From Candidatus Thorarchaeota archaeon (GTDB taxonomy: Archaea; Asgardarchaeota; Thorarchaeia; Thorarchaeales; Thorarchaeaceae), in the NCBI GenBank assembly GCA_011364905.1, contig RDNZ01000007.1, positions 1 to 64,000 on the forward strand: DNA of 64,000 nucleotides, written 5' to 3'. Shown here in pieces: positions 28,132 through 38,934 of this stretch (its first letter is position 1; every line of letters starts with the position of its first letter). The translations under genes were made by a program, and so were the position numbers. The notes beneath the pieces are model-generated. The model searched no databases. It was given only the letters and a program-made list of their open reading frames with translations, and was not told the DNA's origin.

Positions 28132-29292
28132 ATGCTTGCTGAGAGAAATATCGATGTTCCTGCTAGTGAGATTAGAAAGGTCTACAATAATATCATTGGG
28201 AGAACCGACGTTTTCGACATGACTGTTGGGATACCCGATTATGACACTCCTCAGCATATCAAAGATGCAGCAAAGAGAGCCATCGACGAAGGATATACGA
28301 CGTATACTCACAATGCAGGGTATATTGAGGTCAGGGAGGCACTCGCTGAAAAACTCAAGCGGGACAACAATATAACAGCAGACCCAGCTACAGAACTGAT
28401 TTGTACAGCAGGCGGCATGGGAGCTCTTGTTCTCGCAAACCTAGTTATGATTGATCCTGGGGACGAGGTCATCTATCCAGATCCTGGCTTTGTAAGTCAT
28501 TATGCACACATAAAACTCGCTGGTGGCATTCCAGTCCCAGTCCAACTAAAAAAAGAGAATGATTTCGGTATAACTGCAGAAGATGTTGCAAACCTCATAA
28601 CACCAAAAACAAAAATGATTGTGCTAAACTCACCTAACAATCCAACAGGGGGAGTTATACCCAATAAAGAATTGAAGCAAATTGCGGAGCTTTGCATTGA
28701 GAACGACATCTATGTGATTGCTGATGAGGCATATGAAAAATTCAGGTACATAAATGAAGAACCCCAATTTATTGGCTCATTTGAGGGGATGAAAGAACGA
28801 ACAGTCTCTATATTCTCTTTCTCTAAGACCTATGCAATGACCGGGTGGCGGATAGCTGTTGCCACAGGCTCCAGTGAACTAATTGGTGCAATGACTAAAC
28901 TGCAAGAACACATTATTGCAATGCCTACTTCCATTGCGCAAAAGGCTGCAGAGGCGGCAGCAATAGGACCTCAGGACTGTGTCAACGAGATGCTCAATAC
29001 ATTTCGAAAACGAAGGGAGATAATCACAAAGGGACTAAGCGAAATTGAAGGAATTGAGTTGCATCCTCCAGGTGGGGCGTTTTATGTGTTTCCAGATGTA
29101 TCAGCTTATGGAGTCAAATCGTACGATTTGGTATACAAGATTTTGAATGCGACAAATGTAGCGACACTTCATGGTTCAGCCTTTGGAAAATACGGAGAGG
29201 GATTCCTGAGGTTGTGCTATGCTGTTTCAACAGAGAGAATCAATGAAGCTCTGAGCAGACTTGATGCCTATCTGCCAAAACTATTGCACTGA
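28132..29292 (+). CDS. class I/II PLP aminotransferase (AspAT-like)
   Basis: NSPNNPTG, DEAY, SFSKTYAMTGWR, GAFY. Confidence 0.93.
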   Translation: MLAERNIDVPASEIRKVYNNIIGRTDVFDMTVGIPDYDTPQHIKDAAKRAIDEGYTTYTHNAGYIEVREALAEKLKRDNNITADPATELICTAGGMGALVLANLVMIDPGDEVIYPDPGFVSHYAHIKLAGGIPVPVQLKKENDFGITAEDVANLITPKTKMIVLNSPNNPTGGVIPNKELKQIAELCIENDIYVIADEAYEKFRYINEEPQFIGSFEGMKERTVSIFSFSKTYAMTGWRIAVATGSSELIGAMTKLQEHIIAMPTSIAQKAAEAAAIGPQDCVNEMLNTFRKRREIITKGLSEIEGIELHPPGGAFYVFPDVSAYGVKSYDLVYKILNATNVATLHGSAFGKYGEGFLRLCYAVSTERINEALSRLDAYLPKLLH

Positions 29293-29341: not shown

Positions 29342-31654
29342 ATGACATCTCGGAGTAAGCGTCTCAAACAGCAAATGCTCGAGTCAGAACCAACCATTTC
29401 ATCAGAACGAGCGGTTCTATTTACAGAGTATATGAAGGAGCATTGGTCAGATTCAACAATTCTCCGAAATGCTGGTGCTTTTGCTTATGTACTTGATAAC
29501 ATGACTATCCGGATTGAACCAGAGGAACTCATCGTTGGAAACATGGGGCCAACTCCTCGTTCTTGTCAGGTATTTCCAGAGTATAGCTGGAAGTGGATTG
29601 AGGATGAATTAGATCGGTTCGCCAAGAGAAGAACCGAGAAGTTCATGATAAGTGAGGAGGACAAGCAGAACCTCCGCGAAGTCTTCAAGTTCTGGAGGGG
29701 AAAAAGCACAGCAGAACTGGCAGGATTTGCGATGCCAGCAGAATCAATAAAGGCTTCAAAAGCGGGTCTCTTTACGATTGGTGCTCCAGGGACTGGTATT
29801 GGCCATGTCATTGTCGATTACAACGAAGTCTTACACAAAGGGCTCCTTAGGATCCTGAATGAGTTGAACGGGAGAGAGGGAGACTACTTCGAAGCGGTTC
29901 GCATTGAGATTGAAGCGGTAGTGAGATTCTCTGAACGCTTCTACCATCTTGCCGCAGAGATGGCTACGAAAGAGGTTGATAAAGAACGAAAGGCAGAACT
30001 ATTGGAAATCGCACGAATTTGTAAGAAAGTTCCTGCTGAACCCGCTGGAACATTCTACGAGGCACTCCAGTCATTCTGGTTCATCCACTTACTGATACAG
30101 ACTGAATCAAATGGTCATTCAATCTCCACAGGTAGGTTTGACCAGTACATGTTTCCATTCTACGAAACAGACCTCAAGAGCGGCAAACTTGATGAAACAG
30201 GAGCTATTGAACTCCTTGAGGTACTCTGGGTAAAGTTATCATCTCTAATCAAAATAAGAAACGAATACTATAGTGTGGCCTTTGCGGGTCATCCCATGTT
30301 TCAAAACCTCACCATTGGCGGTCAGCATGCGAATGGACAAGATGCAACAAATAGCTTAACGAAAGCAATCCTTCAAGCTACAGCGAACATAAGGGTTACA
30401 CAACCAAGTGTTTCATTTCGATGGCACAAGAAAACTCCTGAAGACATCAAATTGCAGGTTGTCGATGTGATCTCGAAAGGCCTCGGTATGCCAGGTCTCT
30501 TCAACGATAATGCAATAATCCCTATGATGATTGAGAAGGGGACTGATCACTCAGAGGCGCATGATTACTCCATTTTGGGATGCGTTGAGCCAATCATAGG
30601 TGGAAAGTCTGACCCAAGACAGAACATAGGATATGTCAATCTGCCAAAGATTCTCGAAGTGACACTGAACAACGGAAGGGACCCAAAGACAAGTGAATTG
30701 ATTGGCAGGGAAACTGGAGATCCTAGAAGTTTCAAGTCGTTTGATGAATTATGGTTAGCATTTGAAGAACAGACTGACTATACTATTGAGCTGCTGACGC
30801 AGGCAGATAGGGAAGCTGCTAGAGTCCTGGCCAAAAACACGCCGACACCATTTATCTCATCGCTTTTGCAACGATGCAACGAATCGGGCAAGACATTACA
30901 AGAAGGAGGAGCAATCTATAGCTCTGGTGGAATCATGGGTGTTGGAGTGGCAATTGTGGCTGACTCACTCGAGGCTCTCAGGAAATACGTATTCGAAAAC
31001 CGAGAAGTCGCGATGGATGAGATGCTTCAAGTCCTTGCTAAGAACTATGAAGGCTATGAGGAACTCAGAGTCAGGTTAGAGAATGACTCCGAAAAGTATG
31101 GTAATGACATTGAACGAGTAGATCTTCTTGCTAGGAACACTGGCAGGATATTTTGTAATTCAGTTCAGAATCGAATGACGACGAGAAACACTCCTTATCA
31201 TGCTGCTTTGTTCTCAGTGTCTATGTATATTCCGCAGGGGGAGGTACTTGGAGCCACACCAGATGGAAGAAAGGCGGGGTATATGATATCTGATGGTGTT
31301 TCACCCACTCAAAACAGAGATGTCAATGGACCTACTGCAGCCATGAAATCTGTGGCCAGGTTAGATCACTCTCTGTGTTACAATGGCACGCTCTACAATA
31401 TGAAGTTCACACCGGATTTCTTTGAGAATGAGTCAAAGAGAAAGAAGTTCATTGGCATGGTTGATGCGTACTTCGCAATGGGCGGATTTCATGTCCAGTT
31501 CAATGTGGTTTCACGAGAAATCCTTGAAGATGCGAAAGTAAATCCGCTGCAGCATAGAGACCTAATAGTAAGAGTTGCTGGATATAGTGCTTATTTCATC
31601 GAATTGGACCCGTTCGTTCAGGATGAGGTCATTGCTCGAACGGAATTCTCCTAA
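29342..31654 (+). CDS. glycyl radical enzyme, PFL2/diol-dehydratase-like
   Basis: single-Cys loop LGCVEP, Gly loop VRVAGYSAYF, ESNGHS, RFDQY, QNLTIGG. Confidence 0.92.
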   Translation: MTSRSKRLKQQMLESEPTISSERAVLFTEYMKEHWSDSTILRNAGAFAYVLDNMTIRIEPEELIVGNMGPTPRSCQVFPEYSWKWIEDELDRFAKRRTEKFMISEEDKQNLREVFKFWRGKSTAELAGFAMPAESIKASKAGLFTIGAPGTGIGHVIVDYNEVLHKGLLRILNELNGREGDYFEAVRIEIEAVVRFSERFYHLAAEMATKEVDKERKAELLEIARICKKVPAEPAGTFYEALQSFWFIHLLIQTESNGHSISTGRFDQYMFPFYETDLKSGKLDETGAIELLEVLWVKLSSLIKIRNEYYSVAFAGHPMFQNLTIGGQHANGQDATNSLTKAILQATANIRVTQPSVSFRWHKKTPEDIKLQVVDVISKGLGMPGLFNDNAIIPMMIEKGTDHSEAHDYSILGCVEPIIGGKSDPRQNIGYVNLPKILEVTLNNGRDPKTSELIGRETGDPRSFKSFDELWLAFEEQTDYTIELLTQADREAARVLAKNTPTPFISSLLQRCNESGKTLQEGGAIYSSGGIMGVGVAIVADSLEALRKYVFENREVAMDEMLQVLAKNYEGYEELRVRLENDSEKYGNDIERVDLLARNTGRIFCNSVQNRMTTRNTPYHAALFSVSMYIPQGEVLGATPDGRKAGYMISDGVSPTQNRDVNGPTAAMKSVARLDHSLCYNGTLYNMKFTPDFFENESKRKKFIGMVDAYFAMGGFHVQFNVVSREILEDAKVNPLQHRDLIVRVAGYSAYFIELDPFVQDEVIARTEFS

Positions 31655-36813: not shown

Positions 36814-37311
36814 TCAATAGCCTCTGCTTCGGTCGCGATATCCACCGCCACCGCGACGATCTCGGTCCCCATATCCACGGCCTCGGCCATATCCCCGACC
36901 GCCACCGCCACCGCCACCGCCATAGCGTGGACGTTGTTCGTGCTCTTCCGCACTCATGTCAACTTCATTGTTGACCTCTTCGATGGCTTCCTCAGCGTCC
37001 TTGAGGGTACCGTAACGTCCGATGTTGAGTCTAAGATGACCCTGAAAGAGAGTCGTGTATCCATTCTCGAGCCGGTAGGTCTTCTCATCTTCTATCTCAT
37101 CGATTGAAGCATCCCATAATGGAACTGTCACAAGACCAGTACTGTCTCCAACAACCGTATCGCAGACACGGTGGTTTTCTCCATCAGCCCTGGATGTCAC
37201 TTCCCTGACTTCTCCTTTCTCAATCACCTTGAATGAGATATTCACACTCTTCATTCTTGGTTTAAGTTCTGAAATTTGAGCCTCAATTGGCTCTCTCTCT
37301 TGATATCCCAT
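36814..37311 (-). CDS. ssb: single-stranded DNA-binding protein (single OB fold, crenarchaeal type) with Gly/Arg tail
   Basis: ISELKP, VGDSTG, LWD, NGY, LNIGRYG; RGG-rich C-terminus. Confidence 0.88.
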   Translation of the reverse strand: MGYQEREPIEAQISELKPRMKSVNISFKVIEKGEVREVTSRADGENHRVCDTVVGDSTGLVTVPLWDASIDEIEDEKTYRLENGYTTLFQGHLRLNIGRYGTLKDAEEAIEEVNNEVDMSAEEHEQRPRYGGGGGGGGRGYGRGRGYGDRDRRGGGGYRDRSRGY

Positions 37312-37488
37312 GGTCTATCACCTTGGATTTGCAGGCTTTCAAAAGTAGAATCTTCCTCAGGGATCGCAAAGCTGTGCCTGGAACTCTGGAGCTTGTGATT
37401 CAACTAATCTTTGAGGGCACTGCTACTCTATCGGGATATCTAATTCCCTTTAAACTCTTGTCTAATATCTGGAAAGTCCAAAATGAGG

Positions 37489-37735
37489 TGGACGATTGTA
37501 GACACCCAGACTTGGTGCCCGATTTTGCGGGCTCGAGGTCCACCCTCTTTTGTTATTTTGAACATGAGTGGCGCTCCAATGCACACATTGTCAAGACACC
37601 TCTCTGAACCCTCGGGGGTGAGAGCACGAATTTCCCTGCAGATGGATAATTCGTATACGCCTACGCAATGCGGTCGCATCGTTTCCACGACTATCGACGA
37701 TGCGTGGAGCAATGGGGCATCCGACCAATCGTCCA
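37489..37735 (-). ncRNA. putative large structured non-coding RNA, family unrecognised
   Basis: 10-bp closing helix TGGACGATTG/CAATCGTCCA plus at least 7 nested helices; mismatches become G-U only on the minus strand; TTATAAG box ~37817-37823 upstream. Confidence 0.6.
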
Positions 37736-37836
37736 AGATATTGTATGCAACATACCAACATAAGTCCTTCCCCAATGTTCAAAAATCATTCAACTATTCT
37801 ATACTCATAGAATAACTTATAAGAAATCAACAGGAC

Positions 37837-38934
37837 TTGGCTATAATAGAGCCAAAGGTGACGTATTTGAACGGAATAAAGGTCGCGATAGTTGGAGTTG
37901 GCAACTGTGCGAGTGCACTTGTTCAGGGTGTTGAATTCTATAAGAGTGCAAAGACTGAAGATGAACTGATTGGATTAAACCATCTTGATTTTGCAGGATA
38001 TCATGTGAAGGATATTCAGTTCGTGGCAGCCTTTGATGTTACAGACACCAAAGTTGGCTTTGATCTTGCAGAAGCCATCTTTGCCGAACCAAACAATGTG
38101 ATGCGGTTTGCAAAAGTTCCAACGACTGGAGTCAAGGTGTTGAAAGGTCCTGAGCTTGATGGTGTAGACGACATGCTAAGAGGGATCGTGAAAGTTGCAT
38201 CTGGGGATGAAGCTGATGTAGTCAAGGTCCTCAAGGATTCAGGTGCTGAAATGCTCATCAACTTGATACCTGGCTCAGCTGAACAGGCCACGAAGTTCTA
38301 TGCCAATGCCGCACTGGAGGCGGGCTGTGCATACATTAATGGCACGCCAATTCCAATTGCATCGGATCTAGAATGGAGTAAGAAGTTTGAGGAGAAAGGA
38401 TTGCCTCTAGTTGGCGATGACATTCAGGACCAGCTCGGTTCTACTGTGTTTCATCGAAACATACTACAACTCTTAGTATCACGAGGAGTCAAAGTTGACA
38501 AAAGCTATCAACTAGATGTTGGAGGCGGCGCTGAGTCTTTAGACTCGCATTATCGAGGTAGGATGAGAAAGAGAGGCGTAAAAAGTGAGGCAATTAGTCA
38601 AGACTTGCCCTATGATGCGCCATTGGTTGCTGGATCAAGCGACTACATTCCTTTTATGGATAATGCGCGAGACTCGTATTTCTACATCAACGGACGACAG
38701 TTTGGAGGAGCTCCAATCAAGATTGACATCAGAATGGAGGTCACGGATGGACCAAATGCTGGCCCAATACTCATGGATGCAATCAGGGGAACAAAGCTTG
38801 CTCTGAAAAGAGGTCTTGCGGGGTCTCTAGAGTCAATCTCAGCTTATGGTTTTAAGATGCCACCGACCCCTACGACAATGTATAGAGCTGAGAGATGGGT
38901 TGAAGAGTTCTTATTGGGTAAGAAAAGAAACTAG
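37837..38934 (+). CDS. ino1: myo-inositol-1-phosphate synthase
   Basis: IVGVGNCASALVQG, VAAFDV, GDDIQDQLGST, D.PN....D, FKMPP. Confidence 0.85.
   Translation: MAIIEPKVTYLNGIKVAIVGVGNCASALVQGVEFYKSAKTEDELIGLNHLDFAGYHVKDIQFVAAFDVTDTKVGFDLAEAIFAEPNNVMRFAKVPTTGVKVLKGPELDGVDDMLRGIVKVASGDEADVVKVLKDSGAEMLINLIPGSAEQATKFYANAALEAGCAYINGTPIPIASDLEWSKKFEEKGLPLVGDDIQDQLGSTVFHRNILQLLVSRGVKVDKSYQLDVGGGAESLDSHYRGRMRKRGVKSEAISQDLPYDAPLVAGSSDYIPFMDNARDSYFYINGRQFGGAPIKIDIRMEVTDGPNAGPILMDAIRGTKLALKRGLAGSLESISAYGFKMPPTPTTMYRAERWVEEFLLGKKRN

Follow-up and report, generated by a model that had tools for sequence, protein, structure and literature searches.

A Probable Structured Noncoding RNA Gene of Thorarchaeia between the Divergent ssb and ino1 Genes

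The ssb–ino1 Intergenic Region

The window, that is, the whole 64,000-nt stretch of Thorarchaeota DNA analysed here, contains a 525-nt gap between two divergent genes. On the minus strand, ssb (36814-37311) encodes a protein with an Ssb-like OB fold (PF21473) and an RGG-rich tail, and on the plus strand ino1, the gene of myo-inositol-1-phosphate synthase, is listed from position 37837. Within the gap, the minus-strand segment 37482-37738 is matched over its full length by two covariance models, with 261 bits for R1, which was built from 23 homologues of the same genus, aligned by MAFFT with no fitting to a structure (alignment A3), and with 226 bits for the class-wide model R2. The mature RNA is predicted from the sequence to run from about 37737 to about 37480; this RNA of approximately 255 nt holds ten helices, and its ends pair with each other. 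Its GC content is 52.5%, compared with 44.5% in the window and 31–43% in the flanks. A 111-codon open reading frame that overlaps the RNA carries frameshifts and one to four stop codons in most relatives. Since the overlapping frames are broken in this way, the element is judged from these sequences to be non-coding, which agrees with an earlier interpretation made from the DNA letters alone (hereafter, the sequence-only reading), where the overlapping frames had been called non-protein-like.

The gene neighbourhood is largely preserved. In nearly all genera, ino1 lies divergently upstream of the RNA, usually 100–190 nt away, and in this window and in several genera ssb is found downstream in the same orientation, at 140–260 nt. 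Because ino1 is divergent class-wide and ssb is downstream in several genera, the ancestral order looks to have been ino1 <- | -> RNA -> ssb. Exceptions include the lack of ssb beside the RNA in a part of the genus (loci L017-L023) and in many other genera, genus g3 and genome G033 of genus g7 (locus L086), where ino1 and the RNA are approximately 700–900 bp apart, and genome G062, in which the RNA has no adjoining ino1.

Both flanking genes possess upstream elements of their own. The ssb gene is preceded by a TATA box, TTTAAA (37449-37454, minus strand), that is conserved in relatives, and by a 5' UTR of about 115 nt (within 37312-37454) with hardly any variation among 15 genomes of the genus. 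This 5' UTR contains the imperfect hairpin GCAGUGCC...GGCACAGC and has AGGUGA as a Shine-Dalgarno sequence at its end; it is a candidate autoregulatory or other cis-regulatory element of ssb. Base-pairing between the RNA and the ssb 5' UTR was evaluated by RNAduplex and fell within about 0.5–2.3 standard deviations of shuffled sequences, with no conserved site. On the other side, the palindrome TATTCTAT-N4-ATAGAATA (37795-37814) is located directly upstream of the ino1 TATA box TTATAAG (37817-37823), and other genera likewise have its half-sites, ATAGAAT, upstream of ino1. By its sequence and its place between the ino1 and RNA promoters, the palindrome is probably a transcription-factor operator. 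The listed TTG start of ino1 (37837) is too close to the TATA box, and the protein begins with M-N-G-I-K-V in other genera; the true start is therefore probably the in-frame TTG at 37867, which is preceded by AGGTGA (37855-37860).

Secondary Structure of the RNA

All helices described below are on the minus strand. The terminal helix P1 is formed by GGACGAUUG (37726-37734) and CAAUCGUCC (37490-37498); its first five pairs are nearly invariant class-wide and the sixth pair covaries. It is followed by P2, in which GGAUGCCC (37715-37722) pairs with GGGUGUCU (37500-37507) and all four core pairs show compensatory changes in alignment A4, a set of 50 diverse class-wide homologues aligned to the covariance model. 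P1/P2 closes a junction from which P3, P9 and P10 branch. Helix P3, GCUCC (37706-37710) with GGAGC (37573-37577), has 99% of its cells paired, and its last pair appears as C-G, U-A, A-U, G-C or U·G. Inside it lie P4-P8, namely the P4 hairpin (37675-37704), with compensatory changes in 8/8 pairs, and the covarying P5/P6 stem (37584-37672), which carries P7 and P8. All seven pairs of P5 (37666-37672 with 37584-37590) and all three pairs of P6 (37659-37661 with 37595-37597) covary, and both helices are among the top pairs by mutual information.

Two of the hairpins combine pairing with conserved irregularities. P7 (37627-37653), GAAU-R-UCC / GGA-R-AUUC, is conserved class-wide together with its purine-purine mismatch, which switches between A·A and G·G (alignment columns 127/144). 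The P8 hairpin CUCUCACC...GGUUCAGAGAG (37601-37623) has a conserved UCA bulge and is absent in genus g2. P9 (37540-37571), CCACUC / GAGGGUGG, possesses an A-rich loop with a conserved start, AYGUUCA, and a conserved 3' block, GGGUGGACCUC; the GGGUGGACC block is absent in genus g5. Finally, the P10 hairpin GCCC...GGGC (37517-37532) covaries in 4/4 pairs, is missing in three genomes of the genus and, on this comparison of sequences, is dispensable. The class-wide consensus reads yGGACg...cGUCCnCyu in P1 and the tail, GCUCy/GaGC in P3, CACC...GGUUCAG with the UCA bulge in P8, and AYGUUCA and GGGUGGACCUY in P9.

Several of these helices had been proposed in the sequence-only reading. The closing helix, placed there at 37489-37498/37726-37735, its extension into P2, the hairpins at 37517-37532 and 37540-37571, the helix at 37573-37578/37705-37710 and the hairpins at 37600-37624, 37626-37654 and 37675-37704 are all kept in relatives, with the boundaries given above. 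By contrast, the bases of a supposed local hairpin at about 37658-37672 belong instead to the long-range pairing of P5/P6, the stem bearing P7 and P8. A pair of identical CAAAAU loops had also been pointed out; conservation does not extend to these loops, three same-genus genomes lack one of the two hairpins, and the likeness is a local feature only.

Beyond the helices, mutual information indicated no pseudoknots or tertiary pairs other than a one-pair extension of P7 and its A·A/G·G mismatch. An alternative switch pairing of GGUGGAC in P9 with GUCCACC at the 3' end was considered and rejected, because the 3' tail varies (CCCCAU, CCUCUU and others) with no compensation in the fixed GGGUGGA. 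Inspection by eye revealed no recognised protein-binding motif (k-turn, C/D or H/ACA) in the RNA, and no conserved C/D boxes (RUGAUGA, CUGA) or ACA at the required places.

Covariation and Strand Assignment

The minus strand of the region 37463-37790 folds with -108.9 kcal/mol (z = -3.25), a value reached by none of 100 shuffled sequences, as compared with z = -1.37 for the plus strand. On alignment A3, the 61-pair structure has 97% of its cells paired, and 15/61 pairs show compensatory changes, versus 7.0 ± 1.6 in column shuffles, none of which reached 15 in 500 trials, and 4–8 pairs in slid controls, where the partners were moved by one to three columns. On alignment A4, compensatory changes were found in 51/61 pairs, and the covariation score was 0.406 versus 0.06–0.09 in the slid controls. 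It should be noted that the percentage of paired cells in A4 is inflated because this alignment was fitted to the covariance model; the double-change count and the slid controls are less affected by the fitting. An independent mutual-information scan also ranked the pairs of the model at the top. Thus, the check by covariation that had been suggested for this locus gave a clear signal on both alignments, and the resulting support for the RNA is on par with that of curated Rfam families.

The paired cells of A3, when read on the minus strand, include 127 G·U and 11 A·C combinations, and the RNA is assigned to the minus strand because G·U outnumber A·C to this extent. RNAalifold agrees, with -59.2 kcal/mol for the minus strand versus -38.0 kcal/mol for the plus strand. 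The same orientation had been deduced from the A-C/G-U mismatches of the single sequence.

Putative Promoter and 3' Trailer

Upstream of the RNA, a putative promoter (37757-37771, minus strand) consists of a BRE-like GGAAGGA (37765-37771) followed by the TATA-like box CTTATGTT (37757-37764). A CTTAT/CTTAA box is common to all 50 homologues and always begins at a distance of 30 nt upstream from the first G of P1, with a purine-rich stretch before it and an A/T-rich patch after it, at about -10. The sequence-only reading had named TTATAAG as the TATA-like element upstream of the RNA; this box keeps a fixed distance to ino1 and is for that reason attributed to the ino1 promoter, the box of the RNA being CTTATGTT. 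At the other end, the trailer ACCUCAUUUUGG (37478-37489, minus strand) comprises a single-stranded tail and an oligo-U, terminator-like run, and ACC with a pyrimidine- or U-rich run follows P1 in all 50 homologues.

We compared this layout with that of twelve genes from the same genus, six for RNase P RNA and six for SRP RNA. In these, the TATA boxes TTTTTATC and TTTTTAGG likewise have their start 30 nt ahead of the terminal helix, and this helix is followed by ACC... or CACC... and a U/C-rich run. The TATA geometry and the trailer being the same, the RNA element shares the layout of the stable RNA genes of the genus.

Distribution among Thorarchaeia and Beyond

The Thorarchaeia set comprised 85 other genomes from 16 genera, all of one large family, and a single genome from a second family. 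With model R1, the full-length RNA was found once per genome in 68/86 Thorarchaeia genomes, and it is represented in 15 of the 16 genera and in 22 of the 23 high-quality genomes of the class. At the DNA level, homologues were detected in 22/27 genomes of the genus, down to 69% identity. The RNA is single-copy in the genome to which the window belongs, as it is in relatives, which answers the earlier question of its copy number. Genome G020 shows a second partial copy on a 541-bp contig (contigs C398 and C292) and likewise two RNase P RNA matches on separate contigs; this bin probably mixes two strains.

Within the class, the RNA was detected neither in the four genomes of genus g10 (83–93% complete) nor in the single genome of the sister family f2, where the search covered the genomes as a whole and, with filters off, the sites beside ino1 and ssb. 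Both ino1 and ssb are present in genus g10 and in the sister-family genome. As these lineages have no detectable RNA, it is dispensable in some lineages and not essential.

The search with model R2 covered 151 genomes of the phylum, among them 126 Asgard genomes outside the class. In those 126 genomes its matches did not exceed 18 bits, a search that more diverged relatives could escape; we treat these matches as spurious because the six that were examined lie inside or overlap long open reading frames. Among viral contigs, 97 matches to a 14-mer were at chance level, and none of the 80 loci scanned fitted the model.

Transcript Evidence

Parts of the stretch are contained in two metatranscriptome runs, X1 (mangrove) and X2. 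A 231-nt contig from X2 (word depth 20.5) covers only 37508-37717 and enters neither flank; 16 extra letters match the P1/P2 strand of a relative, so that this contig falls short of the full RNA by about a dozen bases on either side. A separate X2 contig (depth 3.1) covers the 5' region of ssb, 37244-37407. The X1 contigs cover 37176-37399, that is, the 5' part of ssb only, and are uninformative either way on the RNA. With a depth of 3–4, the contigs over the ssb 5' region extend no farther than 37399 and 37407 and do not reach the RNA. The X2 contig is a hint of a discrete, abundant RNA alongside a separate ssb mRNA, whose start would lie downstream of the TATA box at 37449-37454, to be read with the provisos that contigs show neither strand nor true ends, that RNA libraries can contain DNA, and that the RNA is represented by one contig, from a close relative.

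Search for Known RNA Families

A scan of the whole window against Rfam release 15 at the gathering score produced no match. At E <= 10, the region and 20 homologous loci gave only chance matches (isrK with 15 bits, PCA3_2, HCV_J7880), none of them recurrent, and ARAGORN called no tRNA or tmRNA gene in the window. These searches, among which the Rfam comparison had been recommended by the sequence-only reading, bear out its remark that the SRP helix-8, RNase P P4 and tRNA signatures are lacking.

RNase P and SRP RNAs were the first suspects because neither was seen in the genome that contains the window. This genome is 81% complete, nearly all relatives possess both RNAs, and their lack here is probably due to missing contigs. 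The archaeal RNase P RNA model (RF00373) matched neither the window nor the 20 homologues at E <= 10, and relatives carry a bona fide RNase P RNA elsewhere (110–199 bits); in genome G002, for example, the RNA is on contig C11 and the RNase P RNA on contig C3. The archaeal SRP RNA model (RF01857) likewise gave no match at this locus, and relatives carry their SRP RNA elsewhere. Because both genes are found elsewhere in relatives, the element is neither RNase P RNA nor SRP RNA. As a separate observation, contig C7 of genome G001 carries two full-length RNase P RNA matches on one strand, 28603-28942 and 31249-31574 (157 and 110 bits, above the Rfam cut-off), separated by 2.3 kb, which makes an RNase P RNA paralogue in this Thorarchaeon possible on sequence grounds.

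A Y RNA of a Ro ribonucleoprotein was also considered. The Ro protein domain (PF05731) is encoded in none of the 86 genomes of the class, although the positive controls worked, and no Y_RNA or YrlA match was obtained from Rfam; the reading fails since no genome has a TROVE/Ro gene. Similarly, a T-box (RF00230) was rejected, as the RNA has no such Rfam match, possesses its own promoter and terminator and has no cis downstream gene.

Nature of the Element and Alternative Explanations

We conclude, with a probability of roughly 85%, that the minus-strand segment 37482-37738 encodes, as a gene in its own right, a stable and highly structured noncoding RNA of about 255 nt specific to Thorarchaeia; that this segment is an independent structured ncRNA gene is highly probable. 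The sequence-only reading had offered a new ncRNA of 250–300 nt or a large cis-regulatory leader associated with the RGG-tailed SSB. The former has stood, with covariation across the class, single copies, a promoter of its own, a terminator-like trailer and no match to a known family; the latter has not.

As a cis-acting leader of the ssb mRNA, riboswitch-like or protein-binding, the RNA would be expected on the same strand upstream of ssb, and the co-oriented arrangement of the two at 140–260 nt, which is seen here and in several genera and looks ancestral, is in line with this. However, loci L017-L023 of the genus and those of many other genera have no ssb beside the RNA, genus g10 possesses ssb but lacks the RNA, the U-rich trailer and the conserved TATA box at 37449-37454 come between the two, and the ssb contigs end at 37399 and 37407 without being reached by the RNA contig. 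Given that ssb has a promoter and 5' UTR of its own and that many genomes lack it next to the RNA, the leader reading fails and is very improbable. A link to ino1, in which the RNA would be a regulator working from a shared divergent control region in inositol-phosphate or lipid metabolism or in metabolite sensing, is less easily dismissed but still unlikely. The divergent ino1 at about 100–190 nt in nearly all genera speaks for it, as does the palindrome between both promoters that recurs in other genera; against it, the RNA of G062 is not beside ino1, the insertions of genus g3 and G033 separate the two, the 75 nt upstream of several homologues contain no palindrome, genus g10 has ino1 without the RNA, and a neighbourhood kept within one class may be merely inherited gene order.

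Membership of a known family (RNase P, SRP, tmRNA, Y RNA, T-box or another Rfam family) in highly divergent form is even less probable than an ssb leader. The size and the end-to-end closing helix do resemble RNase P, SRP and Y RNAs, the genome at hand has no RNase P or SRP RNA match, and the GAGGG-UGGA-CC block resembles the T-box helix A1 with its UGGN bulge. Yet relatives with this RNA also have, on other contigs, an RNase P RNA (56/61 genomes searched) and an SRP RNA (56/61), the genome in question is incomplete, the Rfam, ARAGORN and TROVE/Ro searches were negative as described, and genus g5 lacks the UGGA block, which in the present genus is engaged in internal pairing. As for a repeat, a mobile-element remnant or palindromes acting at the DNA level, the many inverted repeats are the one point in favour, and we give this practically no weight: the RNA is single-copy in every genome and keeps a fixed neighbourhood, its strand-asymmetric G·U pattern is explained only at the RNA level, and it was not found in viral contigs. 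A MITE would require multiple copies, and the genome has one, as do relatives (the extra copy in G020 is on the short contig of the mixed bin).

Proposed Role and Significance

Large RNAs with many covarying helices and conserved junctions are mostly ribozymes, riboswitch-like sensors or ribonucleoprotein cores. To our knowledge, very few orphan structured RNAs of this kind come from archaea. Asgard archaea are the closest prokaryotic relatives of eukaryotes. In the literature on structured RNAs of Asgard archaea and Thorarchaeota, of which our coverage is incomplete, we found a description neither of this RNA nor of any orphan structured RNA from Asgard archaea.

For the independent RNA gene, we tentatively propose, at somewhat less than even odds, that its product is the RNA part of a ribonucleoprotein, recognised by a sequence-specific partner, most simply a protein. 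Several segments are fixed in sequence where pairing alone would permit variation: GGAC/GUCC in P1, the purine-purine mismatch of P7, CACC/GGUUCAG with the UCA bulge in P8, and GGGUGGACCUC and AYGUUCA in P9. From this pattern, we infer that these segments resemble recognition surfaces. The invariant helix bases, the isosteric purine-purine mismatch and the conserved 3-nt bulge are what suggest a recognised RNA that would act in trans as a folded molecule. The RNA and the divergent ino1 may share regulation through the operator palindrome between both genes.

A more specific version, which we regard as improbable, would make the RNA the core of a Thorarchaeia-specific ribonucleoprotein or ribozyme, for example a trans-acting one that docks the 3' CCA of a tRNA or another RNA on the GAGGG-UGGA of P9. 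In this genus, an internal CCA pairs with the UGG of GGG-UGGA in P9, and in the acceptor-end version it would occupy the GAGGG-UGGA site as a built-in mimic. If true, this would place a T-box-like acceptor-end reader outside bacteria for the first time.

Independently of its role, the RNA would close a gap of about 250 nt in the annotation of Thorarchaeia genomes. Its gene boundaries are clear, its size is suitable for in-vitro transcription, chemical probing and cryo-EM, and phylogenetic profiling could use its loss in one genus as a natural comparison when partner proteins are sought.

Comparison with Known Systems

Similar to the RNase P (RF00373) and SRP (RF01857) RNA genes of the genus, the gene described here has a TATA box 30 nt before the terminal helix, ACC with a pyrimidine- or U-rich trailer, a similar size and one copy per genome. 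It differs from them in its fold and conserved sequences, in showing no P4-type pseudoknot or helix-8 motif, and in being dispensable in one genus.

The likeness to the T-box is confined to a local motif. In T-boxes, which have been described as bacterial, the UGGN element pairs with the 3' NCCA end of tRNA (PMC7778990, PMC7583486). In the Thorarchaeia RNA, the P9 helix strand ends in GGG and is directly followed by UGGN, here UGGA. The wider GAGGG-UGGA-CC block resembles the T-box helix A1 together with the UGGN bulge. Unlike a T-box, the RNA has no Stem I, specifier, Stem III or antiterminator/terminator pair and is not located in a 5' UTR, the partner of its helix strand is upstream and not downstream, and the motif is missing in genus g5.

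Further close parallels are orphan noncoding RNAs of complex fold that were found by comparative genomics, including the raiA motif RNA, OLE RNA and the archaeal HgcC and HgcE-G RNAs. The RNA has no sequence or structure similarity to these, which are all included in Rfam and gave no match, and it stands apart in its domain of life, here Asgard archaea, with an archaeal promoter and terminator layout. What it shares with them is a free-standing gene of 200–600 nt, many covarying helices, a narrow phylogenetic range, conserved single-stranded or bulged nucleotides, and a function that is not deducible from the sequence.
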